52,459 nt of DNA from assembly GCA_965233585.1 (NCBI GenBank), contig CBDDTI010000593.1, positions 1 to 52,459 of the forward strand, given 5' to 3'. Under the pieces are notes generated by a model. The model saw nothing but the letters and a program-made list of their open reading frames with translations, made no database searches and was not told the DNA's origin. Position numbers and translations under genes: made by a program. This stretch comes from a bacterium. Its GTDB lineage: Bacteria > SAR324 > NAC60-12. Of the stretch, positions 17,205-47,120 are shown one piece after another (positions within the stretch are counted from its first letter, which is position 1; every line of letters starts with the position of its first letter).

Positions 17205-17378
17205 GCCTTACCATCCGATTCCTCTATTTGAACTTTCCTAAATCATCATTGGAAAAAAACAACTGTGAATCACTGAATTTCCGCTATACTACTGTTGTAT
17301 TTTATCAAAAATTAATTATCCAAGTATCTGACACGTAATATCTTAAGAATTAAAGAGCGGACAACGTAAAGAGTTTAC

Positions 17379-18060: not shown

Positions 18061-18409
18061 TTTCAAATTATGTGACTGGAGAGAGAGGGGACTCGATCTG
18101 GGCCCACCTTTTATAGGGACGCTTACTTTAGGTGTAACCTTCTAAGCAACATTGTTCAGCAAAGTCATAGCACAACAGGGAGGAAATGATCAAGCTTTCC
18201 AAGTTGGAGAGTTGGAATACTCCCAGATAGACTTAAAGCTGCACACTTTCATGTGTTTAGTGTTGCGAAACTTGCAATACTCAGAATTGGGGTCCAAGCT
18301 TTTTTCAAAGGTAGATGGTCTGGGATGGGGAAAGTTTGTTTTATTGTATATTTGTCACTCTTGTAGTATATAATCCCTTGCAGAGTCTAAAGCCCCTAGC
18401 TAATGGAGG

Positions 18410-19000: not shown

Positions 19001-19545
19001 TCAGGTTAGAGAGCACAATAAATGTATACCATATTTTTTTACAGCTTAAGACGAGGAAGCGGAGGATGCAATAACAGGGATTTTAGTGGATACACAGCTC
19101 TTCACTACGCAGCCCTCCACGGTCATTTGTAAGTTTGTTTAGGACATTTCCTATTTTTCCTTCTTATTTTCCCATTCCATTTTTTATATTTTCCATCAAA
19201 TTTTGGTAATTTTTAGCAAATTTTGGTAATTATCACCAATATTTGATCATTTTTACAAAAATTTGGTAATTTTTGCCAAAAGTTTGACTCTGAAAATGTT
19301 ATGCACCAAATGGAATTGCTTAGAACTCACCAGCCTTTACTTTTTCAAGATTTTGACCTTTTCATGCATCTGCCCAACCTTTCCTCACTCTATTCAAAGA
19401 CAGAATGAAAAATTTTATTTTTGTTGGTTTGTTTTGTTGTTGTTAAGCTTGGTAATCTTAGATAATACAAATCTTAGATGCACTCAGTGGGGCCATAGGC
19501 TACATTGATATGATTATCTAGTTCCTAGGGTGAGTATAGAATCTA

Positions 19546-20475
19546 CCGGGTGGGGTGAAAAAATCTTCACACTTTCAATATAGAACTTTATCAAGATGTA
19601 TTTGGGAAACCAGTAATGTTGTGGCAATAAAAATGTTTTAAAATAACTAAAACAATGTCTTGGCTACCCTAATCATTGATGTAGCCCCCTTAGCAGCAAT
19701 GATGGCCTCCAGGCAGCCACGGAAGGCCTTGCACCCAATGCAGATGTGGTCCTCAGACATGGTTTCCCTGTGTTGATTGACAGTGTCGTTTAGGGCATTG
19801 ATATTTTTGTGACATATAGTGCAGGCCTTGGACTCAACATACACCCAAAAAGTGAAGTCCAATGGGTTGGCATCTGGTAAGTAAGGGGGCCACATGTTCT
19901 TTGGCCAGAAAGGCTATGTTGTCCTCCAACCACTTCTGAGCCTTTTTGGGGCCTTTTCAGGTGCTCCATCCTGTTGAAACATCATGTTCTTGCCTGGCTA
20001 GTAATGGGAACAACGAACCTATTCATCTAAAGTTTGAATTTTTCACACTGTGCGAAAAATTAACAAAAAGTGCAAAATTTTCACACCTTTTGCGAATTTT
20101 TCACAACAAATTTCGCAAAAGGTGGGAAAAATTCGCAAAAGGTGTGAAAATTTCGCACTTTTTGTTAATTTTTCACACATGTGCGAAAAATTTAAACTTC
20201 AGATGAATAGGTTCAACTTCTCTTGATCCCCAACTGCTTTGCAATTTCTGTTGGCATTTAATAGTGCGCGGATTAAAATTGGTTGGTCAAATTCAGATGG
20301 CATTTTCTGGGGTTCTAGAGCACTTAGGAAGCTCCAATTTTCTTTGTATACTTCATTTTTGTTTATTTGTTTATTTATTTATTTATTTTATTTGACCAGA
20401 AAAATTTTACCACATTCATACAACCTTGAGCTATTTAGCAAAAACGAAGTGTAAAGATTTTTTCACCTCACACGG
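19546..20475 (-). mobile_element. Internally deleted Tc1/mariner-superfamily transposon (transposase pseudogene)
   Basis: Minus strand FQQDGAP and WPPYLPDANPLDF motifs; imperfect TIRs CCGGGTGGGGTGAAAAAATCTT / AAGATTTTTTCACCTCACACGG; TA at left; interrupted by MITE A. Confidence 0.8.
20015..20214. mobile_element. MITE family A copy 2 nested in the Tc1/mariner
   Basis: Same TIR as 2926-3098; flanked by AAC on both sides (possible 3-bp TSD). Confidence 0.75.
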
Positions 20476-21215
20476 CATATGGATATTCTCACCCTAGTTT
20501 ACAAGGGACATATTAATCAGTTTCTAGGGCGAGAATAGAATCTATGAGGATATTCTCACCCTAGTTTACACCCTAGTTTCCACCCTAGTTTCTTGGGTGA
20601 GAATAGAATAGAAAGTGTATAAAAATTAATTCTCACCCTACGTACCTCAGGGTGAGAATAGAACGAACCGCCTCCCTTAGAACCAATTGATTGCTAAAAA
20701 GCTCAAAAGCTAATAAAAATTCTAAGAAAAAAGGTAAAAGGCCGGACATTTTACTTCATGTGGCTACTAAATTACTTATTTAGTGTTTTTCAAATAGACA
20801 TATCTTTTTTCCCCCAGAAAGAATTTTTATAAGCTCTTTGGCTTCTTAGCAGCTTCTATGTCATGATCCACTTCTTAAAGTTGGAGATCTTAAAAGTTAA
20901 CATGCAGGATTTACCACAAGGGCTCAAACTCCTCTAAGACCCCTAATCAGAAAATCGATGTTTCACCTGAGGTGACATTGCTTCTTTTGTCTTCAACTTT
21001 TATCCAATAGCAACCTAATGTGTTTAAGTGAAATAAATTCCTTCATCTAAAATGTCCCTAAGAATATAAAGGGCTCACTTTTTGAAGGCTGCTAGTAATT
21101 CCGCCAAAACTACATGTAGCTTGTATTATACGGAAAAGAGTGCCATCCTACTACGTAATGCTTCTGAAGTGCTACTCGAATTTGAAACCATTAACCCTCT
21201 AATTGTAACTTACAG

Positions 21216-21371
21216 AGATATTGTAGAGCTGTTACTTAGTTATGAAGCGTCGTGCAACAGCGCCGATGATAAAGGATCAGTCCACTCCATCTAGCTGCAT
21301 GGGCAGGCCATACGCAAATAGTGGAAACTCTACTTACCCAAGGACCTTCCATTGCAAACGTCAATCTCACG
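21216..21371 (+). CDS. ANKS1: Internal exon of host ankyrin-repeat gene (ANKS1/caskin-like); apparent 1-bp deletion
   Basis: TTACAG acceptor, GTAAGT donor; reads DIVELLLSYEASCNSADDKGS[frameshift]SPLHLAAWAGHTQIVETLLTQGPSIANVNLT; ankyrin consensus and GPSxxNVNL typical of ANKS1 proteins. Confidence 0.75.
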
Positions 21372-21497
21372 GTAAGTTAGTTAGACTGCTTTGTAGTTTT
21401 GCAAAAAATGGCTTAATAGCACCAAATCTTCAGCTACTTGAGTTGAATTCAATCAATATAACATTCACCTTATCTGTTTGTATTTTATCAGGTGATA

Positions 21498-22210
21498 CTG
21501 CCATCCAAACCAAATACCAGAGTTCATAATGCAGTGGTTCTTAACCTTTTTCGACGGTGTGCCGCAGTGCTCATTTACAAAAATCATACGTGCCGACCAA
21601 TTACGTATATTTCGTTGCGTATTTAGTGAGATACTTGAAACTGCATTTGGCCGTCCAGAAGAGCCGAGTGCCGCACTCGGACCTTTCGCGTGCCGCATTT
21701 GGCACGCGTGCCGCACGTTAAGAACCACTGTCATAATGCCTTCTAATCATTTGCCACCAATACCAAGTACCACCCTAACTAAGTGCCACCCAAGACATTT
21801 GCCATCCAAGATATTTTCCTATTAAGACATTTGCTGCCCAAGACATTGGCCACCCAAGACAATGGCCACCAGAGACATCTTCCACCCAAGACTTTTGCCA
21901 TTCAGGGCAAAAGCCAGGTGGCAAATGTCACAAGCAATCAATGTCTTGGATGGCAAAAGTCTTGGGTGGCAGATGTCTCCGATGGCCATTGTCTTGGGTG
22001 GCAAACGTCTTGAGCAGCAAATATCTTGAGCAGCAAATGTCTTGAGCAGCAAATGTCTTGAGCAGCAAATGTCTTGAGCAGCAAATGTATTGATAGGCAA
22101 ATATCTTGGATACCAAATGTCTTGCATGTCAAATGTCTTGGGTGGTACTTGGTATTGGTGTCAAATGATTTACAGGCATTATGAATTCTGGCATTTGGTT
22201 TGGATGGCAG
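21498..22210. mobile_element. Foldback element with internal short tandem repeats
   Basis: CTGCCATCCAAACCAAAT... vs ...ATTTGGTTTGGATGGCAG; internal GCCACCCAAGACATTT and GAGCAGCAAATGTCTT repeats. Confidence 0.7.
21532..21730. mobile_element. hAT-type MITE nested in the foldback element
   Basis: TIR CAGTGGTTCTTAAC...GTTAAGAACCACTG; perfect 8-bp TSD TCATAATG (21524-21531, 21731-21738). Confidence 0.9.
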
Positions 22211-23437
22211 AAGTCTTTGGTGGCAAATGTAGTGGGGGCAAAATTACTGGGGGCAAATAGGATAGGTGGCAGGTGTCTGGAGGCGTGTCAGGTGGCAACA
22301 TTGCAGTGACATCTGTCGTAGAATCTAAAGAAACAATAGAAATTCAACAAACCCGAATTATATTTCCTCACGGATGATGAGGTCACTTCCAGTGCTCTAG
22401 GCAGAAAAATATCAATGGTTGGAAGGGGCCATTTTTGTAATGTTCACCAAATAAAGCTGAAAAATGAATTGTATCATATAAAGACTGGCAATGCTACGCG
22501 CTGCTGCCTGTTAAGGCTCCAAAAATAGACCACGCCAGAGTTAAATATTTCGAACTATCTTTGTGGTGTCTGGCCAGGTGGCAACCTTATTGGGGAGAGT
22601 GGCGACTCCTGTAATACCAGCTTCTGCAACACAACCTGCTGACCAACGGAGAAGGTAAGAAACATGGAATTGCAAAGGAATAGTTCAAGGTAGTAGAGGC
22701 TGGAAACAAAGCTGGGCAAAGCCTTTTTGAATTGGCATGGTCTAAGTACATGCATTTCTAATCTGTAATGTGTTTTCTGTGACATGAACATTGGGAAGGT
22801 GTATACTTAAAGGAATGAATTTTGAGGACTGAATTTTGAGCAAACACCTACGCGACAAAAATGATAATGGTTATGAAAAATGGCAATGAATTGGCAGTGA
22901 AATTATAAAAATTTTTAGACCACATGAAAAGGGTCTAATCATCAAACTATTTACATATATTTTTACCCAAAATTCAATGATCAAAAGTCATTCATCAATA
23001 GGTGTTTCATCAATATACATGCTGCCAACACAAAAACATTACAAGTTAAAAATAACTGGCTGTAGATGACAGCACCTAATAATGGGAGGGGATCAGTTTT
23101 GAAATTTTGGATGGAGAGGGACATTCTTCCCTGGCATGCAGTGAGGCCATTTACTAAATAGTGACAGAAGTACAAAAATCTATAATTTTCAGGTGCCTTA
23201 AAAAATTGCTTTGTTTTTTGCAATGTTGTAGTATTTTCAGTAAAACATCACCACTTTTTGGCATGCAAATTGGACCAGAATGTCAACACGACAAGAAAAG
23301 TATTCGGCCAAAGGCCGAAAAAAGTTTTTGAGTTTTTCAGTTGAAGTATCCTGGTTGTGCTTTTTTGAGAGCCCTGTGGTTTAAAAATCTTACGTTTTTA
23401 AGGCAGTGTATTTTTTGTTAAGTGAGCATGTGTTTTT

Positions 23438-23661
23438 GTATACAAAGCGACCTCTACGGATCTAAAAATAGGCGCCATCGGTCTACGCGTAGACCGTTTG
23501 AGACTGAATCGGCCTTAAATGATCTAAAAAGACCTCAAAACAGTCTGCTTGCAGGCTGCACGTAGACTGAATGGCACCTTCCTGCAGCCTGCAAGCAGTC
23601 CGTTTGAGACTGAATCGGCCTGAAATGATCTAAAAAGACCTCAATACAGCCTTCCCGCAGC
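23438..23661 (+). repeat. Left terminal inverted repeat (224 bp)
   Basis: GTATACAAAGCGACCTCTACGG...CCTTCCCGCAGC; reverse complement of 46897-47120 with no mismatch seen. Confidence 0.95.
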
Positions 23662-26882: not shown

Positions 26883-27569
26883 TTACATAGATACGTGATA
26901 GGTTTTCATCGGATATTCGTGAGGGAAAATGTGACTTCTTAATCGCACCAAATTGTTTTGTCGCTGATGAAAATCAAGCAAGAGGTATCCGTAAGGACGA
27001 TTGTTGGTAGCCAAACGATAGGCTTCATTTAATAAAAAATTTCTCCCGGGAAACACTTGTTTCGACAGTTGAGATATGGAGCTTTGATCTCTGGGGTTAT
27101 TGAACAAAACCATATATTGGGTGTTGATGCTCAGTGTTCGAAGTTCATTTTTGGCATTGAATAAGTTTTGACACAGGAAAATGGTGAAACAATGATAGTG
27201 GTGAGTAAGGACCGTAAAAAAATGCTTTAAAACCGATCCTACTTCGTCTAAATAATCATCGAACACTACCAGTTTCGGAGCTTTTTTCGGCAACATTTCT
27301 AATATGTCTTTTATTTCCTCCACGGAGGAAGGTATCGATGCAAATTTAAAAAAGCGAGTTTCGTTTTGATCTTGATTCATCTGTTGGTCCATGTCCTCGT
27401 AAGCCTTCTGCCATTCTTTGTAAAATAGTATCATGTACTTTGGTACTTCGGCAAACATGATTTGGCGATTTTCCACTAGTCTCTTTAACCACGATGTTTT
27501 CCCGCTGGAAGTAGGTCCTACCGCCAACATGTTGGATGGCAGGAAAAATCGCACATCGAATCCGCCCAT
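26883..27569 (-). CDS. Genome-packaging ATPase (FtsK/A32-like)
   Basis: Walker A GPTSSGKT, Walker B LVVFDD, downstream HH, QNLF, RTLSIN and RPYGYLLLD motifs typical of Polinton ATPases. Confidence 0.93.
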   Translation of the reverse strand: MGGFDVRFFLPSNMLAVGPTSSGKTSWLKRLVENRQIMFAEVPKYMILFYKEWQKAYEDMDQQMNQDQNETRFFKFASIPSSVEEIKDILEMLPKKAPKLVVFDDYLDEVGSVLKHFFTVLTHHYHCFTIFLCQNLFNAKNELRTLSINTQYMVLFNNPRDQSSISQLSKQVFPGRNFLLNEAYRLATNNRPYGYLLLDFHQRQNNLVRLRSHIFPHEYPMKTYHVSM

Positions 27570-27623
27570 TATTTTTGCCGTTACTCACGTTTTCACACGC
27601 CAATGTTTATATTTAATCTATTT

Positions 27624-30600
27624 TTACGGCTTACATAGATGATGTCTTTTGTATCTCTTAATATACACACTGCCCAGGGCCAATGTACATTTGCCGCAAG
27701 GTAATATATATCTTTTTGTGTCCATAGAAGAGAGGGCAATTTTCCGCCGAAAAGTTGTGCTGATTCGATGGTTCTTTGATGCCAAATGGGTAAACGTTTT
27801 GTAGGTCAATTTGCTATCGATCAAACATTTTTCATAATCTTCGAAAGAAAGTTGATTTTGGATGCTCGTTCTTTTCAATCCTTTGCAAACTTTTTTTTGA
27901 GCTTCTTTTTTACTATTTAAATTTTTTATTTTCATGGCGTAACATTTCGGTCTTAATCCGATAAAATCGGTAATGGCCGACTGACCTTTCAGTTCGTCTT
28001 TAAAATAAAACAAATGATTAGCTCTGCTGTTGTTGTACAGTACGTGATTCTTATTGTACTTGGAAAAGTCGAACATGTGCTCCATTTCTTTCAGTTTATC
28101 GATCAAATTGCTGCACTTGACTTGAAACAAGAAACTATCCGTATCCGAGAAGCATAATTTTAAATTTTTTGCGCCAAATTGTTGCCGAAATTTATCGTAA
28201 GATCGAAACATGAATAATTTGGATAATTCTAAAATCGCAAATCCGGTAGGGGTGGGTTTATTCAGGGTGATGAAATCGGGCTTTTTCATCACCGCTACCA
28301 AATTTTCGTTGATGATCTTAAAGTTGGAAACGTGCTGTCCTAGGCACGCTTTTCGTAGACTTTTTTCATTATCACACAAAATAATGCTGGTGTAATTTCG
28401 TGCGTTTTCTGAAAAAATATCCATGATATCAATTGATCATTTTTTGTTTTAAAAAAAAGGAGGAAAACATAATTACCTATGAATTTCCCGAAAGTTGAGT
28501 TGGCAAAAAGTTTGAACAGCCGAAGTTCAAATTCTGTTTCTGCTTCCGATCTTAGTTTGGTGATTTTTGTAATGAAATTTTTCAGGAAATCTTTTTGGAT
28601 AAATTTTACCGCTCTCCTTATTTTTACCAATTTTAACCCTTTTTGAAGATAATACTGCAAATTGTCCAATAAAACCACATACTTCTTCCGCGGATAAAAT
28701 GTGGCTAAAAGTTTTTTGGAATTGTACTTCTTTCTTCGGTAATCTCGGTAGTTTTGCATTTTTAGAACCTGTCTGTTGAACGGAGATAAGTTTTTAAAAT
28801 CAATTTGTCCGTTGTAGGGAGCTAGTGGAAATTGATCATCTCGCTGATAAAAAAATGGGAGAAAAAAATTTAATTATATTTTTTTCTTTGATAAAACTGA
28901 GAATATCCTTTTTCTCTTTTATCATCATTACCTTGTGATATTTTTTGGGATAGATCATATCAACTTCAAAGGCGTAGCCTGTTTCTCCCTGCGTTGGAAT
29001 GTTCAAAATGTCTTCGGCCGTCCATGATTGGAGTTGTTTCTCCGACACCCACTCGAAATTTCCCACGGGTAGTTTAAACGTTTCACAACTTCCATATAAA
29101 TTATTAGCTAGAAATATGATGGAGGGGGGAAAAAAATCAGATCGAATTTTTCTTTCTGGCTATATTTTTTTACTTACCGTCAACATAAAGCAGATGATTC
29201 CCCGGTGTTTTAGGATCTTCGTTTCCCTTCGCTCGCCTGGTCGATATAAAGCTTTGCCCTCCTCGTATGCCTTTATTGAAAAACTGTTCCATGTCCGGAT
29301 CATGGAGCAAATCTAATGAACCAAATGGTTTTTCGGTTTCGTCCTTATTTTCAGTCTTTTCCTTTTCATAGTACATTTTCAGCATAATGTCGAAAGATAA
29401 ACCGGGTATGCCTATATAGAAAAAAATGTTTTTAAAATAAATGAACCAAATAAATTTTTCCATTTTTTTCAAAAATATCTAAACGTACCTAAGTAATAAA
29501 TCGGGTCCAATTTAAAATGATGTAATACCATTTCCCGATATTTGACGAAAACTTCTGCCAGCAAAATGACATCCAGTCCGCAGTATAACTTCATGTAATC
29601 CTCCATCGTTCGACATTGGAAGAATTTAAAGACTTTTTTCCCGTGTTGATAGTCTTCAACGGAAATCCCCGCGTCGTTTAACGTCGAGTGAAACTCTGCT
29701 CGAGATGGGAACGTGCGACTATTTTTAATATGCTCGAACGAGGAAAAAAATTCGTAAGGGTAAACGCCTTTTCGCTTTAATAATTTTACAGCGGGGGGTT
29801 TTTTACGGTGCTTCAGCTTTTGTAAGACCTCAAATTGGCGAAGAAGGGGGAAATTAAAATTGTCATCTTTACACAGGTCCGATACCAGAGCATCCAGACT
29901 CGAAGGGATGTGTTCCAAAGAATCTTTTATTTGAAATCGGCCGATGGAGAGCGTTCTAAATTTTTCCTGATTCCTGGCCATAACTTTGGCTTTAATTTTC
30001 AGTTTTTCCAGCAGCAAATTTATGTCGTATCTGAAATGATTGAGGGGAAACGAGTCATTGTCACAACATGTTGTGGACATGAAAATATTCTTACCCCTGA
30101 GCGTTATGAAAATACAGCGGCGTCAAGAAGGGTCCCTGTCTCTGAAGATTGCAAATAGCGTGTGCAGCTTCGACGATTTTCCCCGAAACATGATCGTGAT
30201 CTACCACTTTTCTATACCGGAAAGATCGGCTTTCAAATGGTTTTTCGCAAATGTGACAAGTTTCGGCCCGGTGGTAAGCGTCCCACTCTAGGGGGGAGGC
30301 TACTATTTGGCTTACTTTTCTAAATCTTTGTTTTCTTTCTTCTACCAATCGTTCGTAATCCGTTAACTTGTTCAGAAAACGCTCAACCGCGTCCTCCCCG
30401 CTGTAGGTTTCTTGGAAAAAAACGTCATTTTCCGAATCCACGAAACATATGGAATAAGCGCAAGGCTTATGCCGGCATTGTTCTACACTGGCTGACACAT
30501 CACATTGGCACGAAATTGGGTTCTTATTACATTTTTTACACTTCACCTTTTGGCCCTGATCGCCTTTTTCCATGAAACATTCGAAATCTGCGAATCCTAT

Positions 30601-31302
30601 CACCGGGGCTTTGAAAGCGTTCTTTTGATTTCGATAGTTTATGCTGTCCCCCTCGTTCGGGTAAACGATTCTTTGTTTATCGTTCTGACAATAACGCCGA
30701 TGAACGTTCTTTTTCCTCCTTGATCGAAATCGAAGCAGACACATTTCGCAGTAGTGGTTACTCACTCTTTTTTTGTTCGGCGAACAGCTGAAGTTTCTCA
30801 TGTTCAGGTAGGCGTTCAAGTTTTTGATGGTAAAAAAGTGGTACTGGTGTTGAATTTGACGCAAGGTAGAAATGGATTTCGTATTGATGTCGTGCGGATC
30901 AGCCCCGATGTACGAATGATCGTATTTCAGCATGAGCAAGTTTAAAATGTTTTTTGTCTTGTTTTTATCGTTGCTCCGGTTGGAAAACGTGTCCAATATA
31001 CTCACTTCGTTTTCGCTGTCGAACAGCACTCTAATGTTCAGTTTTAAATGTTTATTTTTTTGCACAAACTTGTTGATCTGCTTATACGGCAGGGGGAAAT
31101 TTAACCCGTCAAGATTAAAGCGATCTAAATATTCAGTGGGAATGTTTTTAAAATGAGTAATGTGCGCCGTTTGAAGGGGCCATAAATGACGAACGACGCA
31201 ATACAAAAAGTTTTTTTCATCGTACACAAAATTCCATTTCACACTTTTGCAATTCAATAATGTTTTGGAAATGATGATCGATTTGGAGTACGACGGCTTC
31301 AT
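27624..31302 (-). CDS. polB: Protein-primed family B DNA polymerase, 6 exons, 1103 aa, with vOTU-like and EndoVII/HNH regions
   Basis: Exons 31302-30095, 30030-29489, 29411-29178, 29107-28932, 28843-28477, 28408-27624 (3312 nt, in frame). Motifs: ExoI FADFE, EndoVII CHIC..DHDH..CN, ExoII FHNAQGYD, KGVYPY, ExoIII YCGLD, YVDANNLYG, KLFANSTFGK, FSDTDS, RPKCY. Confidence 0.93.
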
Positions 31303-31320
31303 GTTTCTCTGTTTCTCTCG

Positions 31321-31983
31321 TTACAATACGTTGGAAGAGTCGTACAACACTATATCACAATATTTAAGAGTCTGAAAACGCCAACCCGATCCCCTGGTCA
31401 ATAAGTCTTCCTCCCTTTTGGCAGCCCCCCTCAGCATTGACCTAATTCTATTCCTACGCTGTCTCTCGCTCTGATATCGATTGAACAACAGACCTTTTGA
31501 TCTTAGAGCCAACGTATCGTTATCAACGCTTTTATTTTTCTCTCCCGTTTCTTCCTGGCTCAGATCAGGGATCTCGTAATCGGCAAAAATGACTATGCTC
31601 ATCCTAAAAACGGTTCTGACCGCTGTTTGACTTCTGACCAAATTATTTATCGTGTTGACCGTTCCATTAGAGGAGCAAAAATTAGCAAGCGAGGTGTTAT
31701 TTTCTTCTAAAGACATTCGGTAGATGACGACTTTTTGAGAAATTGAGCTTCTCGAAGTAAAGGGGAGTAAAGATTGATGTTGAGGAGACCACATGTGCTC
31801 AATTAATTGGTCTTTATCTTGGAAAAAAAGGTCGCAAAATGGGCAATCTTTTTTGGAAGATGAGGATGGGGTGACGGCAATAATTTGCTGTTCATCGGAC
31901 GGATGTTTTTTTCTCAAATGTCTGTTTAAATTGTTTTTTCGAGAGAAGAAAATATCACACTTTTCACACTTGTAAATTTTCAT
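31321..31983 (-). CDS. Two C2H2 zinc fingers plus putative terminal-protein domain (normally the PolB N-terminus)
   Basis: CEKC...HLRKKH and CPFC...HMWSPQH; C-terminal RGSGW motif characteristic of the N-terminal region of Polinton pPolBs; first ATG at 31983 (32037 is GTG). Confidence 0.75.
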   Translation of the reverse strand: MKIYKCEKCDIFFSRKNNLNRHLRKKHPSDEQQIIAVTPSSSSKKDCPFCDLFFQDKDQLIEHMWSPQHQSLLPFTSRSSISQKVVIYRMSLEENNTSLANFCSSNGTVNTINNLVRSQTAVRTVFRMSIVIFADYEIPDLSQEETGEKNKSVDNDTLALRSKGLLFNRYQSERQRRNRIRSMLRGAAKREEDLLTRGSGWRFQTLKYCDIVLYDSSNVL

Positions 31984-32192
31984 CTCGTTATTACGACAGG
32001 AAAAAAAGGACGATAAACAATTTGATTTTTTTATCACGATGTTTATTTCGCTTGAGATGCGGTAACCGACTGAATAAAATTTCTCAGACGATGATGATGA
32101 TGTAGAATACGAGTGAGTGAGGGCAAGAAAAGAGGGGAAGGGGTTAGAACGAAGAAAAAATATATAACAAAGGAAGGAGGGGGTAGCACAAC

Positions 32193-33455
32193 TCAGGGCA
32201 AATCCATGATCGAATCTAAACCGCTAGCGATGTTCTTGAGGTCTGATAAGCGGTGCATCAACAGGTTTATTATAATATTCAACCTGGCTGTTGTGCGATC
32301 ATCCCTAACAAAACTTACTCCATCAGAAGGGAAAATTGAGGAAAGGCGACGTTGACATTGTTGAAATTGGTCGGATATGGCTCTAAGTTTCATTAAAGCC
32401 ATAAATTCCTTATGCCTGTCCAGCGGCAGCAAATTTTGCATTTGCATGGCTTGCTCCTGGGTAAAAAGGTAGGTATTTTCAAGGGTATTATGTCCAGTAG
32501 CATTCCGGGCTTGGTCAAGTCCCGCCCTCTTTAACTGGTACATGGTGGACAATTTGTACAGGGGCAAATAATTTGACACTTGCGAGGGGGGGACAGGAAC
32601 ATTGATGGAAGCAGTGGCGGCGGTACGAGGTAAGGGTTGATCAACGGGTTGACGTGTAAAGCTACTGGAGGGAACGGTATTGGTGGCGGTTGTCGGAGGA
32701 AAAGACATATTTTGAGGAGGAGAAGAAAACCGGGCAGTCAACGCTTGAAGAGGGTCGGGGGTGACAGGGGAAAAAGTCTGTTGGTTGGGTCTGATGGATA
32801 TTGATGGAGTAGGAGAGCATAAAGGTGTTCGATAATGCCACATGGACCTGGTGGCAGGAGATAAGCTCTGGGTCATAAGGGACAATGGTGAGGGTGACGA
32901 TGTTCGAAGTAAATGGCTTAAAATGGAATTATCTGAAGATTGTGATCGAAATAAAATATGGGATGATGATGATGATGGTAGTGGTGGTGGTGGTGGTGGT
33001 GGCGGAAGTGACGATGCGAGAGGACGTGATCTTTTAACGGTCAAATCAAGGGGATCCTTTTCTTCCTCGTCCGTCATCGAAATTTTCCTCTTTCCTTGCT
33101 CAGATGTGGTATTGATGGTAGTGGTCGATATCAAAGAAGATGGTGCTATGGTGGAAGGAAGCTGATGAAGGATAACACAGGGCTGAGGTCGAGAAATACG
33201 GCGAGGACGGGAGAGTTTCCTCTTCGATTTACCCTCATCATCCGCCGAATTGATGACGGGAGAGGTCGTTGGTGGAACGACCCTTTCCTCAGTTTGATTT
33301 TTTCGATTTCTGAGGATTCGGATTTTTAGTCCATCATCGGAAGCGGTGGTGCTGGAAAAAGTCGATGATGAAGCCCCTTCCGCATGAATATTCGCAGGAG
33401 TAACATCGGTGGTGGAGGTGGTGGTGGTGGTGGTTTGTTCTTGATGATCAGACAT
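32193..33455 (-). CDS. Ser/Thr/Pro-rich, largely disordered 420-aa protein with CtBP-type PLDLT motif
   Basis: Long intact ORF; PLDLT at 33039-33053; basic NLS-like patches; predicted 5'UTR intron 33464-33522 (GTAAGC...TTTTTAG). Confidence 0.8.
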   Translation of the reverse strand: MSDHQEQTTTTTTSTTDVTPANIHAEGASSSTFSSTTASDDGLKIRILRNRKNQTEERVVPPTTSPVINSADDEGKSKRKLSRPRRISRPQPCVILHQLPSTIAPSSLISTTTINTTSEQGKRKISMTDEEEKDPLDLTVKRSRPLASSLPPPPPPPPLPSSSSSHILFRSQSSDNSILSHLLRTSSPSPLSLMTQSLSPATRSMWHYRTPLCSPTPSISIRPNQQTFSPVTPDPLQALTARFSSPPQNMSFPPTTATNTVPSSSFTRQPVDQPLPRTAATASINVPVPPSQVSNYLPLYKLSTMYQLKRAGLDQARNATGHNTLENTYLFTQEQAMQMQNLLPLDRHKEFMALMKLRAISDQFQQCQRRLSSIFPSDGVSFVRDDRTTARLNIIINLLMHRLSDLKNIASGLDSIMDLP

Positions 33456-34272: not shown

Positions 34273-34340
34273 CTGGGTTGACTTTCATCCTTTGAAGACA
34301 AACTTTATTATTTTTCCTCTATATAAGAAAGGAATAAACG

Positions 34341-35637
34341 ATGGGAAAGGCAAAGGGTGAAGCCGCCAAATCCGCCGCTGGTGACAAACATGTCAAAAAA
34401 GGCGGTACGGCGAAAAAGAAAGATCAGCAGAAGGAAAAGAAGGTGGAACAGTCAAAAAAAGAGTTACTCCCGAAAAAAGCGGGGCAAAAGCGGCAAAAAA
34501 ATGGAGGCGGTGATGAGGTCCTTAAGAAGAAGAGTCCTGTTAGCGCCTCCTCCTCGAAGAATCGTAACAAAGGACATTTCAAATTGATAAGGACAAAGAG
34601 AATGATTGACGACGACGACGACAAGATAAAGGAAAAGATGATTGATGACGAGGAGGAGTTGGAGGAGGAGGAGGTGAATCAGGAGGAGGAAGATGAAATG
34701 GCAGATTTCATCGATGACGACGAGGGTACCGATGACACGGAGTCCATAGATACTGTCGACGTTGATATGAAATCTGATACGACGGACGTGAATGATGAGG
34801 ATGAGTCGGAAGAAGAGGAAGAACCGGAAATTCAAACCAAAAAAGTAGCGGTTAAGGCTAACAAAAAAAAGGTCCATGATGCTGACGCGCCCCCTGCCAA
34901 AAAAAAAGCGGTTAAAAGGTATGCGGAGCCGGATCAAATTCTCTCCAAAATCGACATGATCAATTTACCCTTAAGTAAGCAAAAACAAATTTTTTCTGCC
35001 GACAATCAGTGGGAGATTGTAACGCCGGTAGCGACTGCAAGTATAGACTACGACCGTTGGCAAGAACAACACGGAAATCGGGAGGCCTACTTCTTCGCCG
35101 ACGATGGGGTAAGTGAATGAGGAAGTGATAAAAAAAGGAGATTACCAAATCAATAATAAGCCTTTTTTCCACTTGGCTCATCCGCTTATAGTACATCTAC
35201 CCTAATGGGACGACGATGAAGAAATTCATCGAAGCCCTCAGGAACAAAGAGGTAGATTTGGAAAACATCAGTCTTCCCTTCGTACCGATGAATAAGTCCG
35301 TCTCCACGAACCCCCTGATCCGGATGGGGATCACGGGGGTTCGCCACCTGCAGCGCGCCGGGGGGCTGGCCGTCTGGCCAGTGGTTTATCTCAGTCAGGT
35401 TCAGGTAAGGGTAAAAAAAAACGAAAGGTAAGACGTTGATGATGTTGAACTGACTATTTTTTTTTTCTTTCCCTTCTACAGTACAACGAGAACAACAAAA
35501 ATTACAATACGAAGACGATCAAGATAAATTTCCCCCTCTATAAATTGGACGCCATAACCGAAGGACTCTTTGAGCTTTGCACGGGATTGGGTTTTGACAT
35601 AAACTCCGCCTCCATCATCAACAAAATGAAAAAGTAA
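34341..35637 (+). CDS. Three-exon 378-aa protein with basic N-terminus, long acidic tract and globular C-terminal domain
   Basis: Exons 34341-35108, 35192-35404, 35482-35637 (1137 nt, in frame); introns GTAAGT...TATAG (83 nt) and GTAAGG...CTACAG (77 nt). Confidence 0.78.
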
Positions 35638-35851: not shown

Positions 35852-36412
35852 TTATTCCGGCACCGCTTTTAGCTTATCACACAATGATTTTATTAAATAT
35901 TGTACAATTTTTTCGTTATGGTTTAAATTTTGACGAGAGAAAAAGTTTGAAAAATATCGTGGATCGCAACTTGAATAAATGGTAACCATCATACAAAAGG
36001 CGGCCGTGTACCACCCGCAAAACAAGGAATTAAAATTCTGGACGGGATAGGTGAGCACGCGCCTTATCGTAACATTCTTCCGCCTTTTCTTCCACCTTTG
36101 CAATAAGTTCATTAAATGATGATTATGAGCGGGCGGAGGTAGAGCGTAACTGTCAAAATACCAAAGATTTTTCCCCTTGATGTAAATAGCGATAAAATGC
36201 CCGCCCGACCGATGAGAGGGGGATAGATTGACGATAAAACACTTCCCCCCATGATGAACGTTGAATAATTGCGGGGGGACGAGGTCTACGGAGAAAACCC
36301 CCGCAAAATGACGATGGTCTAATTGACGTAAGAATTTTTCCAAGACATCGTTTCTTAACCCCTCGTTGGTCACGACCGACTCGTTCCCCATGTTATGAAT
36401 CGGCGACCTCAT
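35852..36412 (-). CDS. Adenain-like cysteine maturation protease
   Basis: GVFSVD, IVNL, GGHF (His), YFDSY (Asp), Q..NSLFCG (Cys); start may be the second ATG at 36391. Confidence 0.93.
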   Translation of the reverse strand: MRSPIHNMGNESVVTNEGLRNDVLEKFLRQLDHRHFAGVFSVDLVPPQLFNVHHGGKCFIVNLSPSHRSGGHFIAIYIKGKNLWYFDSYALPPPAHNHHLMNLLQRWKKRRKNVTIRRVLTYPVQNFNSLFCGWYTAAFCMMVTIYSSCDPRYFSNFFSRQNLNHNEKIVQYLIKSLCDKLKAVPE

Positions 36413-37742
36413 CGGTTCTGATCACCTGACCTCCGTTATCAATTTTCAACCCGGAATTGAAAATGGAATAGGCCAGGAGATAAATAGGATGGGTTTTGGC
36501 TGTTTTGAAACCCAATTCGACGTCCAACTTCCCCTTTTCGTCCGGGTGGATATGATAACTATTGCAACGGTCGGGGGTGAAATCCGCCGTCAGAAAACAC
36601 CGACCCTTCTTAAAAGCCTCCATGCTTACGCTGCAAGTGTAGTTGGAAATGCCGTAGCCGATGCTGTCGTACATGTGTCGATACAAATCCAGGTAATTGT
36701 CGTTGTCAAAATCGGGCTGAAAAGCCTTCGGAAAGACGCATTGCCCATTTTTGATCACGTTAAAGTGATTTAAATCGAAATGTTGAAAGTTGAAGGGGTT
36801 TCTCGAGCTGCTCTGCGACAGGGCCTGGTTGTGAATCATGCACATAATGAGTTGTTTGGGGAGAATTTGAGAAGCCACGTTGGTGACCGTGTAAGTCGTC
36901 ACATTGGCCGGAATGACAAAAACCTTGAATTGCGTCATTTTGTAGGGTATGTAACACGGCTCCCGGCTCAATTTCAGCGTGAAAGCATCTCGCTGTTGAG
37001 CGGAAGGGAGAACTTTTCTCATTTTCAGCTTCAAATCCTTCAACTGGACGACATAGGTTTTCCCGACCTCGTTGTGCAGAATACCGAATTGGGGATGGGC
37101 TCTCACCAACTTTATCTTGATATCCACATTCGGTGGAAGATATTTATCGGTGTACATGATATCAGCCCCCAAGCGCGAGCAAAAATACACCTTTTTATGA
37201 TCCGTCAATAAATCTCGGCGAGCGGTCAAATTTGTATTACCAGTGGGATCGTTTTTTTCGATTTCCTCCGGTTCTTCGACGAAATAACCTTCGCTTTTTA
37301 ATTGGCATTTTTTGCTCTCCAAATCGTAAGACAACTCCGTCTGGATAAAATTTCTAAACGGATAGGCGTTGGCGGTGCTTTGATCGCAAACTTGCACGCC
37401 GTTCAGGTAAATTTCCACTTGGGAGAATAAGTTATAGGCAAAATTATTAGCCAGAAAAACTTTATGGTCGTCCTCCACATCTCCTGCGGCACCATCTTGC
37501 TTGACAATAAAATGTCCGATCAGTCTGGTTTGGTCCAAAATGAACGAACATTCCGCGTCGCGAGGGATCAGGAATTCAACGGGTCCCGCGTTGGTCACGC
37601 TGGTCACGCTATCGTAAATAACATCCGATCCCTTTTCTAAACTCACATCAACCCCCAGGGGCGAATGCAGATCAAGAGCCTGTTCGATAAGATCGTCTTG
37701 CTCGAAACCTAATCCCGCGATACCGCCCCTATTGTCGGACAT
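36393..37742 (-). CDS. Major capsid protein 1 (Polinton double-jelly-roll type)
   Basis: 449 aa; LFSQVEIYLNG, YPF, KYLPPNVDIKIKL, NPFNFQHFDL, DFTPD motifs typical of Polinton MCPs. Confidence 0.88.
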   Translation of the reverse strand: MSDNRGGIAGLGFEQDDLIEQALDLHSPLGVDVSLEKGSDVIYDSVTSVTNAGPVEFLIPRDAECSFILDQTRLIGHFIVKQDGAAGDVEDDHKVFLANNFAYNLFSQVEIYLNGVQVCDQSTANAYPFRNFIQTELSYDLESKKCQLKSEGYFVEEPEEIEKNDPTGNTNLTARRDLLTDHKKVYFCSRLGADIMYTDKYLPPNVDIKIKLVRAHPQFGILHNEVGKTYVVQLKDLKLKMRKVLPSAQQRDAFTLKLSREPCYIPYKMTQFKVFVIPANVTTYTVTNVASQILPKQLIMCMIHNQALSQSSSRNPFNFQHFDLNHFNVIKNGQCVFPKAFQPDFDNDNYLDLYRHMYDSIGYGISNYTCSVSMEAFKKGRCFLTADFTPDRCNSYHIHPDEKGKLDVELGFKTAKTHPIYLLAYSIFNSGLKIDNGGQVIRTDEVADS

Positions 37743-37861
37743 GATCGAGGAAGAGTAATTTTTTTATTTTTATTTTTAAAAGTTTATTTATTCAATATTT
37801 TTTCAACTGATACACCTTTGCCCTTAAATAGAGACATGCGGCTCGGGGCAGGGGAATGCGA

Positions 37862-39298
37862 TCAATAATATCTCTTTTGTACCTGACGGTCTTTACCGAT
37901 CAAAAGAAGGGCGTTGTACACGGCGTAAGAAAGCAAGGTATAATCCGATTGAGCCAACTTGCTAAAAGTCAAATCCAATGCAAGAGAACCGGATTCGGAG
38001 TTATGGTTGTGAAAAGAATGGCATTTGTCGGGCGTTAAATCGAAAACCATAAAAGTGTATCCTTTTTTGTAATTGTCAAGGGTGACTCGATTTCTGGTGT
38101 TGACATTACTTTGAAAATGGTCGTACATGTGCACGTAATCCCCATTGTCAAAATTGCAACGCATGATGCGCGGTAGCAGAGGTTTACCGTCCTTTTTCAG
38201 CATGACGGAAGAAAGGTTGGCATCTGAATAATAAAAGGGGGAATCGGTACATACATTCCTGCCTAACAGCCTGCTCCGGACCAGGGCAAAAACGATCTGC
38301 ACAGGCATTTTTCTGCCCGCGTTAATGAAATTGGCGCTAAAACTGAGAGAGCCGAAAGGGATGTTATAAAACTTTAGCTGCGTGTCCTTGTAAGGTATAA
38401 CACAGGGCGAATTTTTTTCGTTAAGTGAAACGTTGATCCTGTTGCGCACGCGTACGGTGGTTAGCGCCTTTCGCATCCGTAACTTTACATCTTGTAAACA
38501 AATGTTGTAACGGTCATAAGACGTGGATTTGCTTATTAGCCCAAACATGGGATTAAACCTCCGCAATTTTATATTGATTTCCACATTAGGGGGCAGATAC
38601 TTGTCGGAGTAGAATATATCGGCGGGAATGACCGTGCTAAAGTAGACCTTTTTTCCATTCATGATACGGTTGTGATTTTCTACTAATCGAGGGTCAGTCA
38701 AAGCCGTATCCAAGGTACGTTCGGAGACAGTCCCCGTAGCCGTATCGGTGGGTTCATTTCCATCCTCGTCCATCTCAACCTCCTCAGCAACGTCTTTAAA
38801 TACCAACTTAAACTCATTTTTCCTTTCGGCGGTGTAGTATCCTTCCGTTTTAAAAAGGTAATTGGAGACGGAAAAGGGGTAGGATAAAGTTACATCGATA
38901 TTGTGTTTGAACGGGTAGGAGACGGAAGCGCTGAGATCGCACACTTGAGTGCCGTTGAGATAAACCTCTATTTGTGAAAAGAGACAGGCCCCATAGTGAT
39001 TGGCTAGAGTAACCTCGTCTTTCTCATCTAAAAATTTCCCCTTGAGATCTTTGACCACAAAGTAGCCCTCCAATCTGCTTTGATTCAGCAAGAAATGACA
39101 CTCCGGATCGGGGGGGATATGAAATTCAACATCCCCCGTCTCCTCGATCGGTGAAACGCTGCTATAAATAACAGTACGACCGGATATTAAATCCACTTCT
39201 TGTTCCAAAGGCTTATGCAAGTCCAGACTCTCTCCTTTCAGCTCATTAAACTCCACATTCAGCCCTCCGATACCGCCGCGAGAGGTGGCGGAAGTCAT
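37862..39298 (-). CDS. Major capsid protein 2 (divergent paralogue)
   Basis: 478 aa; shares RGGI.GL, LDLH.PL, LFSQ.E.YLNG.QVCD.S, DKYLPPNV, D.TPD.C.S.H with MCP1; extra acidic insertion. Confidence 0.85.
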   Translation of the reverse strand: MTSATSRGGIGGLNVEFNELKGESLDLHKPLEQEVDLISGRTVIYSSVSPIEETGDVEFHIPPDPECHFLLNQSRLEGYFVVKDLKGKFLDEKDEVTLANHYGACLFSQIEVYLNGTQVCDLSASVSYPFKHNIDVTLSYPFSVSNYLFKTEGYYTAERKNEFKLVFKDVAEEVEMDEDGNEPTDTATGTVSERTLDTALTDPRLVENHNRIMNGKKVYFSTVIPADIFYSDKYLPPNVEINIKLRRFNPMFGLISKSTSYDRYNICLQDVKLRMRKALTTVRVRNRINVSLNEKNSPCVIPYKDTQLKFYNIPFGSLSFSANFINAGRKMPVQIVFALVRSRLLGRNVCTDSPFYYSDANLSSVMLKKDGKPLLPRIMRCNFDNGDYVHMYDHFQSNVNTRNRVTLDNYKKGYTFMVFDLTPDKCHSFHNHNSESGSLALDLTFSKLAQSDYTLLSYAVYNALLLIGKDRQVQKRYY

Positions 39299-39914
39299 GA
39301 TGATAGAAGCGGCGGTTAACCGAGATGACTACACGATAAGTAATATTAAAATCAGCTGCGTCATTGCTATAAAAACTGCGAATCTTCTACTCTTAAATAG
39401 CGATGATAAGAATGTGAAATATTTTGGAAATTTTATCGTCGTTAGAAGAAACAACTTTGTTTACAGCATTTTCAGAAAAAGAAAAAAATCCATCAGAGAG
39501 ACGAATAAGGAAAGGAACGGCGGCGACGCGGTCTTGTATCATATCAACATCACCAAAATTCCGTCGCCTGACCAAATTGCGTCTTCCATCGACAATTTGA
39601 AAAACATCATCCAAAACGAGTATTTTGTGATGACCAAGATAATCAACAACGTAACGTGCACCTACGATACCAAATTATCGTCCATCCCGCTGTTAGATTT
39701 GATAGAGGAATTGAAGGAGAAAATACCGTCGGTGAAGCGGGTGAGATTTAATCCGGAAAGATTTCCGGGAATGTTTATTTCATTTCCGGACAACACCTTG
39801 TTAATTTTTTCTTCCGGCAAAATGGTTGTAATCGGCGGTAGAAGCGAGCGGGTCAATCTTCATAGCATCGGTGAAATGGTCAAATTTTTAAAAATGATCC
39901 AAGACCGGAAATAA
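39297..39914 (+). CDS. TATA-binding-protein-like factor
   Basis: RFNPERFPGMFI...TLLIFSSGKMVVIGGRS matches TBP repeat consensus (YEPELFPGLIY...LLIFVSGKVVLTGAK); ISNI and INNV match the NxV/I strand opening each repeat; first ATG 39297. Confidence 0.87.
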   Translation: MMIEAAVNRDDYTISNIKISCVIAIKTANLLLLNSDDKNVKYFGNFIVVRRNNFVYSIFRKRKKSIRETNKERNGGDAVLYHINITKIPSPDQIASSIDNLKNIIQNEYFVMTKIINNVTCTYDTKLSSIPLLDLIEELKEKIPSVKRVRFNPERFPGMFISFPDNTLLIFSSGKMVVIGGRSERVNLHSIGEMVKFLKMIQDRK

Positions 39915-39981
39915 AACACATATATAAATGACGATCGTTAATGAGATAAAATTGCAGTAAGACATCATCCTCGGGACACGC

Positions 39982-40704: not shown

Positions 40705-40749
40705 CTCGAACACAGGAAGCAGGACGAAAAAAAGAAAAAAAAGGTCGTA

Positions 40750-41169
40750 ATGAGATATCATCGAGGGCCCGCGGTACAGCAAGGCGCGGGATTAGGTTCT
40801 ATTTTTAGCGGCTTAATTCGAACTCTGGCGCCGGTGGCCAAAGGCGCCGTAAAATCAATCGGTCGAATTGTAAAAAGTGACGGTGCCAAATCGGTGGGAC
40901 GGTATTTAAAAAAGGAGGCCACTAGGGCAGCCGTTGACACGGCCTTAGAAGCGTTGGAAGGTAGACCCGTTGGAAAAGCCGCCAAAAATCGATTAAAGAC
41001 CGCTACCAAAAACATACTCTTGAGCGGGAGACAGGCCGTCGCGGCTAATTCTAGCAAACGGCGAAAAGTGAAACGAAAAAATGTAAAATCATCGGCTGTC
41101 AAAAGGAGCCGACTAACGCGATCGAGGCCGTTGTTTGAAGATTACGAGGATGACGACGAGGATTACTAA
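40750..41169 (+). CDS. Small basic virion protein with QxGxG site and amphipathic helix (adenovirus pVI-like role inferred)
   Basis: QQGAGLGSIFSGLIRTLAP motif typical of Polintons; KRRKVKRK basic patch; acidic tail. Confidence 0.8.
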   Translation: MRYHRGPAVQQGAGLGSIFSGLIRTLAPVAKGAVKSIGRIVKSDGAKSVGRYLKKEATRAAVDTALEALEGRPVGKAAKNRLKTATKNILLSGRQAVAANSSKRRKVKRKNVKSSAVKRSRLTRSRPLFEDYEDDDEDY

Positions 41170-42238
41170 GGACGAATTTATCGAAGCTTACACCCGACCC
41201 GGCTCATCTCTCGCTTTCTCCTCTCCTTACCGGGCTTTTAAACAATTTAAGGGAGAAATCCCGCTAAGCAAAATAAAAAATTGGATGCACGGATTGGACA
41301 GTTACACCTTGCACAAACAAGCCAAATCCGCCAGACCGAGGAATCCGACCTATTCCTATTACAAAAGGTATCAGTTTCAGATAGATTTGATCGAATTAAC
41401 TGAGTCAGTGTCGAGCGCCAATGATGATTACCGGTATTTGTTAACCGCCATCGATATATTTACTCGGTACGCCTTTGTCGAGCCGTTAAAAAATAAAAAA
41501 GCATCCACTTTTTTGGAGGGCTTCAAACGCATCGCGGAAAGGGCCCTTACCTTACCTCAAAGAATTCTGGCTGACAGAGGCGCGGAGATCAAAAATAAAT
41601 CTTTCGCGGACTATTGCCGTCAAAACAGAATAAAACTTTTACACAGCGATAATTATATTCATGCGCCGTTTATAGAAAGATTCAACAGAACTTTAAAAGC
41701 CTTAATGTACCGATACATGACTTCGCGCGAAACGGAGCGATTTATCGACGTGTTACCCCGTTTGGTGGAGACCTACAATTCGCGAGAACATCGCATGATC
41801 GGGATGTCGCCCAACGAGGCCGAAAAGGAAGAAAATGCCAATTTGGTACGGGAAAAACAGGAGGAAAATTACGCGAAAAGAACGAGAAAAACGCCTAGAT
41901 TTAAGGAAGGGACGACGGTCAGGATAAGCAAATTGAAAGGACAATTTGATCGGGGCTTTGACGAACAGTTTCACGAGGAAATTTTCAAAATTAAAAAAGT
42001 ATTCACCCGTTTGCCCATTCCGACTTATCAGCTGGAAACTTTTGACGGAGACGAAATTATCGAGGGAAATTTTTACGGAAATGAGTTGGCGGAGGTGGAT
42101 CCTCCCGAACTTTTTAAGATTGAAAAGATAATACGACGAAAAAGAGATTCAAAAACGGGGAAAAAATTGGTCTTGGTGAAATGGCGAGGGTACCGAAATC
42201 CCAGCTGGATACCGGAAAGTGACGTAGTCGATATATAA
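41150..42238 (+). CDS. int: Retroviral-like (rve) DDE integrase with C-terminal chromodomain
   Basis: QIDLI, IDIFTRYA, ADRGAE, IERFNRTLK; chromodomain FKIEKII...LVKWRGY..PSWIPE; first ATG 41150. Confidence 0.95.
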   Translation: MTTRITKDEFIEAYTRPGSSLAFSSPYRAFKQFKGEIPLSKIKNWMHGLDSYTLHKQAKSARPRNPTYSYYKRYQFQIDLIELTESVSSANDDYRYLLTAIDIFTRYAFVEPLKNKKASTFLEGFKRIAERALTLPQRILADRGAEIKNKSFADYCRQNRIKLLHSDNYIHAPFIERFNRTLKALMYRYMTSRETERFIDVLPRLVETYNSREHRMIGMSPNEAEKEENANLVREKQEENYAKRTRKTPRFKEGTTVRISKLKGQFDRGFDEQFHEEIFKIKKVFTRLPIPTYQLETFDGDEIIEGNFYGNELAEVDPPELFKIEKIIRRKRDSKTGKKLVLVKWRGYRNPSWIPESDVVDI

Positions 42239-46896: not shown

Positions 46897-47120
46897 GCTG
46901 CGGGAAGGCTGTATTGAGGTCTTTTTAGATCATTTCAGGCCGATTCAGTCTCAAACGGACTGCTTGCAGGCTGCAGGAAGGTGCCATTCAGTCTACGTGC
47001 AGCCTGCAAGCAGACTGTTTTGAGGTCTTTTTAGATCATTTAAGGCCGATTCAGTCTCAAACGGTCTACGCGTAGACCGATGGCGCCTATTTTTAGATCC
47101 GTAGAGGTCGCTTTGTATAC
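46897..47120 (-). repeat. Right terminal inverted repeat (224 bp)
   Basis: Reverse complement of 23438-23661. Confidence 0.95.

Follow-up and report, generated by a model that had tools for sequence, protein, structure and literature searches.

Animal Mavericks (Polintons) have been described as intronless. Intact vertebrate copies lack introns, 'in agreement with Kapitonov and Jurka (2006)' (PMC8097293), the core genes of nematode Mavericks are intronless and their cargo genes carry introns (bioRxiv 10.1101/2022.07.12.499685), and a large survey of protists chose a prokaryotic gene caller since endogenous viruses 'do not contain introns' (PMC10120064). In dinoflagellates, about 25% of viral elements, mostly Maverick-Polinton-like ones, contain introners, and most of these were gained after integration (PMC11957031). 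The polymerase pPolB2 of nematode and oomycete Polintons bears an inserted HNH nuclease domain, and the study that describes it brings up introns solely as group I introns (PMC10748475). Two further papers (PMC4028283 and PMC10328495) make no mention of introns or splicing, and a literature search that took in neither subscription journals nor Repbase gave no account of conserved spliceosomal introns in a Maverick polymerase. Here we analyse a DNA polymerase gene on the minus strand (27624-31302) of contig CBDDTI010000593.1 of assembly GCA_965233585.1, which lies in a Maverick/Polinton element and is probably split by five spliceosomal introns. The window, that is, the whole stretch of 52,459 nucleotides (nt) analysed, is this complete contig (C593); other C-numbers below denote contigs of the same 12-Mb assembly (G000). 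The Maverick class itself is known, and a lineage of it with old, conserved spliceosomal introns in its core genes, as proposed here, is not in the accounts of Mavericks that we found.

A stop-to-stop listing of the minus strand finds six open reading frames (ORFs) at this locus (30091-31320, 29469-30122, 29170-29478, 28836-29159, 28340-28873 and 27624-28436). An earlier note on this DNA had read the same six pieces as one polymerase gene interrupted by five GT-AG introns with pyrimidine-rich acceptors. A script run on the window recovered exactly the coordinates and lengths it had given, and both the intron phases and the uninterrupted product of 1103 amino acids were borne out. Excision of the five segments rejoins the six ORFs into a single frame from the ATG at 31302 to the TAA at 27626-27624, that is, 3312 nt with 1103 codons plus the stop and zero internal stops. 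The resulting gene structure is as follows.

30095..31302, minus strand: exon 1 (residues 1-403), with a C2HC/C2H2-like finger, ExoI (FADFEC), an Endonuclease-VII/HNH-like insertion and the first half of ExoII (FHNAQG)
30031..30094, minus strand: intron 1, 64 nt, phase 2, G/GTAAGA...TTTCAG/A, at FHNAQG/YD; the site is found in other families
29489..30030, minus strand: exon 2 (residues 404-583), with the second half of ExoII (YD) and ExoIII (YCGLDVILLAE); PF03175 match at E 0.0043
29412..29488, minus strand: intron 2, 77 nt, phase 1, G/GTACGT...TATATAG/G, at YYLG/IPGLSFD
29178..29411, minus strand: exon 3 (residues 584-661), ending in the motif A aspartate (LLYVD)
29108..29177, minus strand: intron 3, 70 nt, phase 1, G/GTAAGT...TTTCTAG/C, at YVD/ANNLYG
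28932..29107, minus strand: exon 4 (residues 662-720), with the remainder of motif A (ANNLYG)
28844..28931, minus strand: intron 4, 88 nt, phase 0, G/GTAATG...TTATCAG/C, at YHK/RDDQFPLAP
28477..28843, minus strand: exon 5 (residues 721-842), ending in motif B (KLFANSTFGKFI)
28409..28476, minus strand: intron 5, 68 nt, phase 1, G/GTAATT...TTTTCAG/A, at FGKFI/ENAR, the split codon being E
27624..28408, minus strand: exon 6 (residues 843-1103 and the TAA), with motif C (FSDTDS) and KxY (PKCYAM)

The ExoI-III, A, B and C motifs are directly visible in the polymerase sequence. All five segments start with GT and end with AG, follow a G at the last exon position, and close with a T-rich tract and YAG. 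Their lengths of 64, 77, 70, 88 and 68 nt include no multiple of three, and their A+T content is 62-83%, versus 59-66% for the exons. Four of the junctions appear as the earlier note had written them (FHNAQG/YD, YLG/IPGLSFD, YVDA/NNLYG and HK/RDDQFPLAP); the fifth, which it gave as FGKFIE/NAR, needs a small correction, as the glutamate is encoded by the split codon itself.

The spliced protein aligned over about 1000 residues with three uninterrupted proteins (P0001-P0003; E 1e-110 to 3e-134), collinearly and with no gap at the junctions, a comparison that the earlier note had suggested. The best of these, P0001 (E 3e-134), bears the PF03175 domain (59.8 bits, cut-off 25.8), and single exons of the window gene gave weak Pfam matches only. 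L030, an uninterrupted relative encoded on a viral contig, shares 33% identity with the window protein, and a structure search with a model of L030 placed phi29 polymerase at ranks 1-9 (E 5e-13 to 1e-9); with a mean predicted local distance difference test (pLDDT) score of 60 and a target template-modelling (TM) score of about 0.4, the quality of this model is moderate. No polymerase came up when exon 6, P0001 and profile A2 were compared by sequence with solved structures. The start methionine is conserved and preceded by an in-frame stop in all families, and the DTDS of motif C is invariant in seven of seven aligned sequences. Between ExoI and ExoII, residues 346-388 (window 30139-30267, minus strand) hold an Endonuclease-VII/HNH-like motif (Endonuclease_7, E 6.4e-4) of the pattern C..C...DHDH..G.....AH..CN; of seven relatives that were scanned, five have it too, in one case with a score above the Pfam cut-off. 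Together with the inverted ends, the integrase and the A32-like ATPase that surround the gene (see below), the P0001 and phi29 matches uphold the assignment of the earlier note to Polinton PolB, and on its sequence features the region is a protein-primed family-B DNA polymerase gene of a Maverick/Polinton.

The same gene architecture recurs throughout the assembly. A tblastn search of the 12-Mb assembly with the spliced protein gave 238 high-scoring segment pairs (HSPs) on 51 contigs, with breaks at residues 403/404, 583/584, 662/663, 719/720 and 842/843. Among 42 strong copies, 36 were callable at the five sites, and nearly all of these have an intron at each, in the same phase and between the same flanking residues; the comparison with sister elements that the earlier note had advised shows the five sites, with their phases, to be shared by about 40 diverged copies. 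Between families, the intron sequences are unalignable and differ in length (short introns 55-96 nt, median 61 nt, in 87 unique versions). Splice-site positions that the calling procedure left unconstrained are nevertheless near-invariant over 110 unique introns, a set that includes one spurious 33-nt 'intron 1' call in the C98 family: on the donor side, the last exon base is G in 109, position +3 is A in 104 and position +4 is A in 108, and on the acceptor side, position -3 is C or T in 106, -5 is T in 99 and -6 is T in 96.

After removal of the introns, 30 of the 36 copies have at least 1035 codons and zero stops, two partial copies also have zero stops, and four contain stops. The ratio of nonsynonymous to synonymous divergence (dN/dS) of the spliced coding sequence (CDS) is 0.07-0.26 in the six pairs with estimable dS, dS being saturated between families; the spliced frame is under purifying selection. 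Insertions and deletions (indels) follow the predicted boundaries. Between the window gene and its copy on C608 (99.3% identity), 3309 nt of exons hold no gap and 358 nt of introns hold eight gap events, and in nine aligned copies of the family labelled 65%, every internal indel falls in a cluster at one of the four intron intervals or lies outside the CDS. Contigs of four public runs from one study list 12 indel variants, 11 of them in introns 2-5 and one just 3' of the stop, although these runs may be the source sample and so do not count as independent support. No Rfam match was obtained at the gathering threshold over 23000-47500, and the five window introns, searched against the 12-Mb assembly, matched only themselves and the C608 copy, and not each other. 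The five-segment pattern lies far beyond chance, because GT..AG sites recur in diverged copies and the junctions are gapless against uninterrupted relatives.

On this evidence, we put at roughly 0.88 the probability that the five segments are U2-type (GT-AG) spliceosomal introns in the polymerase gene of a Maverick/Polinton residing in an animal nuclear genome. Several observations pull the other way. The intron calls in the paralogous copies required GT and AG, so that these dinucleotides are not independent evidence there. No RNA run was found with this stretch; the four runs behave as DNA, and their contigs span the introns without joints. A branch-point-like YTRAY at -45 to -10 occurs in 52 of 87 introns versus 42 +/- 4.8 in shuffled sequences, a weak enrichment. 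Seventeen of the 87 unique short introns are multiples of three, some of them stop-free, and retention would keep the frame in some copies. The copies come from a metagenome bin with maybe more than one host genome, and with about 40 similar elements present the assembly may contain chimeric joins. Lastly, the window element lacks the 5-6 bp target-site duplication, its flanks (...GTTTTT versus CGGCAA...) being different.

Two introns are precisely absent in particular families. Intron 2 is missing from all ten copies of the 65% family, which read TAC TAT TTA GGC ATA CCT with YYLG/IPG contiguous, and intron 4 is missing from C98 and from C212:66406, which read TAT CAC AAA AGG GAT GAT with YHK/RDD contiguous. 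Both junctions coincide with the predicted exon-exon boundary. Other apparent losses were set aside: calls from single tblastn HSPs (C47, C530, C106, C212 and others) proved by nucleotide alignment and anchor measurement to be mostly read-through of in-frame, stop-free introns, and the absence of intron 1 from C93 and C98 was an artefact, the intron being present in both at the nucleotide level. In a maximum likelihood (ML) tree of 17 proteins, the intron-bearing copies form one clade (100/100). Within it, a group made of the window family, the 65% family and C98 (100/99) has as its sister the 55% and 52% families, in which all five introns are present. Because both intron-lacking families are nested inside the intron-bearing clade, the tree indicates that the two absences are derived, precise losses. 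Such a pattern is what would be expected with spliced transcripts; genomic deletion is an alternative.

Outside this clade, the polymerase is nearly always uninterrupted at these sites, in agreement with the view of the earlier note that PolB of Polintons is usually one long ORF and with PMC8097293, bioRxiv 10.1101/2022.07.12.499685 and PMC10120064. A single HSP spans all five junctions in three viral contigs and in C657 of the same bin, with at most 0-7 extra residues nearby. A scan of viral contigs with a single sequence found no polymerase relative, and a profile scan found four. Across 84 viral or metagenome loci (27-43% identity), a single HSP crosses the junction without insertion in 34 of 36 cases for junction 1, 47 of 47 for junction 2, 50 of 51 for junction 3, 57 of 57 for junction 4 and 69 of 69 for junction 5. 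Since the outgroups are all without these introns and the intron-bearing clade is monophyletic, the simplest account is that the five introns were gained on the stem of this element clade, which makes the intron gain suggested in the earlier note the parsimonious reading.

Intron 5 reaches 1.1-2.3 kb in two sister families (L023:3116-5373 with C411, and L022:3018-4233 with C112), where it holds an antisense ORF of 398 or 426 residues with low-complexity repeats rich in Gly/Ala/Trp/Ser or in Pro/Thr/Glu/Val. A distant polymerase lineage, on the public contigs L031:2395-6441 and L038:1227-4868, has interruptions at other sites; GT-AG ends can be read directly in L031, and L038 displays HSP breaks and gaps only. 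One interruption of this lineage lies 5 nt from the site of window intron 3 (IDAN/gtgaga...tttcag/NLYG). L031, whose label is that of a giant-virus bin, probably represents a eukaryotic element as well.

The polymerase gene lies in an element of 23.7 kb bounded by perfect inverted repeats of 224 nt (100% complementary), with the following features.

23438..23661, no strand: left terminal inverted repeat, 224 nt, 100% complementary to 46897-47120
26883..27584, minus strand: putative A32/FtsK-like packaging ATPase with the Walker A motif GPTSSGKTS, carried by 43 contigs
31321..32223, minus strand: C2H2 zinc-finger protein gene (zf-C2H2, 2.5e-9), on 34 contigs
34338..35431, plus strand: second intron-bearing gene of the element, with an intron at 35109-35191 (83 nt, G/GTAAGT...TTATAG/T)
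36393-37763 and 37862-39328, minus strand: two putative double-jelly-roll capsid-type ORFs, a lead only, from language-model features
39168-39914, plus strand: TBP-domain protein (43 bits, Pfam cut-off 22.9), on 34 contigs
39961-40704, plus strand: TFIIB-like ORF, with a weak TFIIB zinc-ribbon match and a helix-turn-helix (HTH) match, on 34 contigs
41117..42238, plus strand: rve integrase (2.8e-11, 44 bits, cut-off 32.6) with a C-terminal chromodomain (Chromo, 7.7e-5), on 44 contigs
46897..47120, no strand: right terminal inverted repeat, the pair of 23438-23661

The Pfam matches of the ATPase are both below cut-off (ATPase_2, 6.8e-6, 26.5 bits against 33.2; Pox_A32, 1.1e-3, 19 bits against 22.8). 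The capsid-like ORFs at 36393-37763 and 37862-39328 have no Pfam match, and by ESM-Atlas features they score 0.98 against clusters whose members bear PF21738 in 15-30% of cases or PF16903 in 24%. A Pfam scan of 31 window ORFs gave no protease family, hence no adenain-like cysteine protease; an ORF of 189 residues (35852-36421) is a protease candidate by size alone. No literature tying Polintons to TFIIB was evident, the titles retrieved being on giant viruses, other viral groups or methods. The core genes and several unnamed ORFs are conserved, each on 31-45 contigs of the bin. Genes on the minus strand are tightly packed, the TAA of the zinc-finger gene lying 18 nt before the polymerase ATG (31302-31323) and the ATG of the ATPase about 55 nt 3' of the polymerase stop (27569-27626), which suggests a shared primary transcript or internal promoters. 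Overall the element is apparently intact as judged from its sequence, and the identity of its inverted ends and the near-identity of its copies suggest that it may be currently mobile. The left flank (23432-23437 side) is AT-rich repeat DNA and the right flank (47121-47126 side) is GC-rich retrotransposon DNA, and the missing target-site duplication may possibly reflect recombination between copies or a mis-join in the assembly.

Introns may not be restricted to the polymerase. In the second intron-bearing gene, HSPs break at residue 107/108 in nine of the 12 other contigs among the matches listed, and a single HSP crosses the intron site in C608, C93 and C382, again among the matches listed. 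A candidate intron at 33522-33464 was rejected as the joined frames hold stops, and a further candidate, at 40701-40808, separates the TFIIB-like ORF from the ORF that follows it. The C98 family also carries an extra insertion of 223 nt in polymerase exon 1 (C98:7382-7604 and C212:69449-69671), with inverted ends of about 43 nt and GT..AG boundaries. The words that flank it are similar (CTAAG and CTAAAG), its excision restores both frame and collinearity, and no other full copy exists in the bin. It could be an instance of intron birth from a small inverted-repeat element.

The assembly that contains the window (12.0 Mb, 747 contigs) is filed as a prokaryote genome, with completeness scored at 92% and contamination at 2%. 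The bin is mixed: ORF density is bacterial in 43 contigs totalling about 3.9 Mb and low, as in eukaryotes, in about 600 contigs that make up more than 6 Mb, and Maverick element genes occur on 64 contigs totalling 1.74 Mb. Tandem 6.6-kb histone repeats (H1, H3, H4, H2B and H2A) are found on C7 and C488, and the named best matches of the histone H1 of the bin are nearly all from molluscs (Mytilus, Crassostrea/Magallana, Ostrea, Saccostrea, Aplysia, Nucella and Bradybaena), with one shrimp in addition. As for other host markers in the bin, COX1 was found only on a bacterial-type contig of 1 Mb and actin as fragments only. Because of the mixture of the bin and its mollusc-like histones, contig C593 is assigned to eukaryotic host DNA that contaminates a bacterial bin, the host most likely being a mollusc or another lophotrochozoan. 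The bacterium binned with this host DNA is one of similar G+C. The case is one in which host repeats, among them histone arrays and virus-like elements, contaminate a bacterial bin rated 'high-quality', which has consequences for the quality control of bins. Elsewhere in the window, the right flank of the Maverick, a contig tail of 54% G+C, holds a Ty3/gypsy-type fragment (49589-51313, plus strand; RT_RNaseH_2 1.6e-28, rve 7.9e-14). Positions 9277-22184, in the left half of the contig, are crowded with repeats 100-230 nt long, both inverted and dispersed (11524-12066 versus 15204-15738 is one case), and have no Pfam-recognisable genes.

Other explanations of the interrupted gene were weighed against this body of evidence. 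It is unlikely that the introns are real and sit in copies that are no longer mobile, that is, in endogenised or host-domesticated polymerase genes that gained introns as resident nuclear genes do. The lack of a matching target-site duplication at the window element would fit such a history, as would the post-endogenisation gain reported for most introner-bearing Maverick-like elements of dinoflagellates (PMC11957031); mobility and particles are, moreover, only presumed. However, the introns are common to at least four families with saturated synonymous sites, each with several near-identical copies (98-99.8%; 99.3%), and these copies adjoin other core genes (64 contigs with core genes, 31-45 per gene). 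The 224-bp inverted ends of the window element are 100% identical, and purifying selection, being at work in many copies simultaneously, is more in keeping with replication-competent elements than with one domesticated gene. A decayed pseudogene, with frameshifting insertions that begin with GT and end with AG by coincidence, is very improbable in view of dN/dS values of 0.07-0.26, of the 30 in 36 diverged copies that become stop-free when the same five segments are removed, of the near-invariance of unconstrained splice positions, and of the count of zero exon versus eight intron indels between the two closest copies. What speaks for decay is the ORF reading itself, which yields six fragments, and the practice in vertebrate surveys of taking Genewise 'introns' as a sign of it (PMC8097293).

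The nature of the segments could also be different. Group I introns do occur in some polinton-like viruses (PMC12220804), and exon 1 encodes an HNH/EndoVII-like domain, so removal by group I or II self-splicing, as inteins or through translational bypass was considered; we give it next to no credence, as the segments measure just 55-96 nt in 87 unique versions, are AT-rich and GT-AG bounded, and have no Rfam match, and inteins are excluded because the segments are not in frame. It is just as hard to see the five introns as recent insertions of intron-generating transposons, a reading for which we find very little room. Introners populate dinoflagellate Maverick-Polinton-like elements (PMC11957031), and the 223-nt insertion of the C98/C212 family, with its inverted ends of about 43 nt, its GT..AG boundaries and a frame restored on removal, resembles one. 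Against this, the window introns match nothing in the 12-Mb assembly but the 99% C608 copy, a weak point as the host genome is only partly represented in the bin, and the introns appear old, because their sites are shared by families with saturated dS.

If the segments are spliceosomal introns, as we favour, the element would be transcribed in the nucleus by the host machinery, as the intron type implies, and the host spliceosome would remove the introns to give an mRNA for the 1103-residue polymerase. As the element would propagate as DNA, the introns would be copied along and so persist; having arisen on the stem of the element lineage, they would then have been kept, with occasional precise loss. 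A broader and more speculative proposal, which we regard as possible and hold only tentatively, is that an active animal Maverick lineage has made host splicing part of its own expression programme, with five ancient introns kept by selection through replication, a TBP and possibly a TFIIB-like protein serving an element-directed Pol II programme, and new introns still being added. Were this true, production of the polymerase would be tied to nuclear pre-mRNA processing, with three introns inside or beside catalytic motifs, and an 'adenovirus-style' nuclear expression would exist in a group thought to use simple intronless genes; introns would still be gained via small inverted-repeat insertions such as the 223 nt of the C98 family. 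More generally, the introns would be evidence for the nuclear expression of these elements. Surveys of Mavericks, polinton-like viruses and other endogenous DNA viruses commonly rely on prokaryote-style callers or score interruptions as decay (PMC10120064, PMC8097293); such ORF-based work would miss an intact intron-split clade, fragment it or call it dead. The series of shared stem gains and precise losses, dated in a fast-evolving DNA element, may also provide a tractable system for intron origin and loss.

In comparison with known systems, the window element resembles animal Mavericks/Polintons in its protein-primed PolB, its integrase with rve and chromodomain, its putative A32-like ATPase, its long inverted repeats, its size of about 20 kb and its multiple copies, as well as in its capsid-like genes, which are a lead only. 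Unlike those elements, described as intronless, it has a polymerase with five predicted introns and a second core gene with one; it also has a TBP-domain protein, no target-site duplication was seen, and no adenain-type protease was found by Pfam. It shares with the introner-bearing Mavericks of dinoflagellates (PMC11957031 and PMC12166617) the presence of spliceosomal-type introns inside otherwise complete elements, whereas dinoflagellate introners belong to repeated families gained mostly after integration and the introns here are unique sequences of 55-96 nt, apparently ancient, at the same sites across diverged families. As in pPolB2 (PMC10748475), the polymerase bears a motif of the ββα-Me/HNH type (EndoVII-like), here between ExoI and ExoII, with a Pfam score at or below cut-off and no homology of the insertions implied. 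Phi29 polymerase is the best structural match of the L030 model, and the Exo I-III, A, B, C and KxY motifs are readable in the window protein, which differs from phi29 polymerase by its roughly twofold length and by insertions that resemble zinc fingers and nucleases. Tc1-like DNA transposons of molluscs reportedly carry spliceosomal introns, as Puzakov et al. (2020; cited in PMC10294476) are said to have described. The window element would be like them in being a DNA-based, probably molluscan, mobile element with spliceosomal introns in a transposition gene, and unlike them in that theirs is a cut-and-paste DDE transposase, from another class of transposons.

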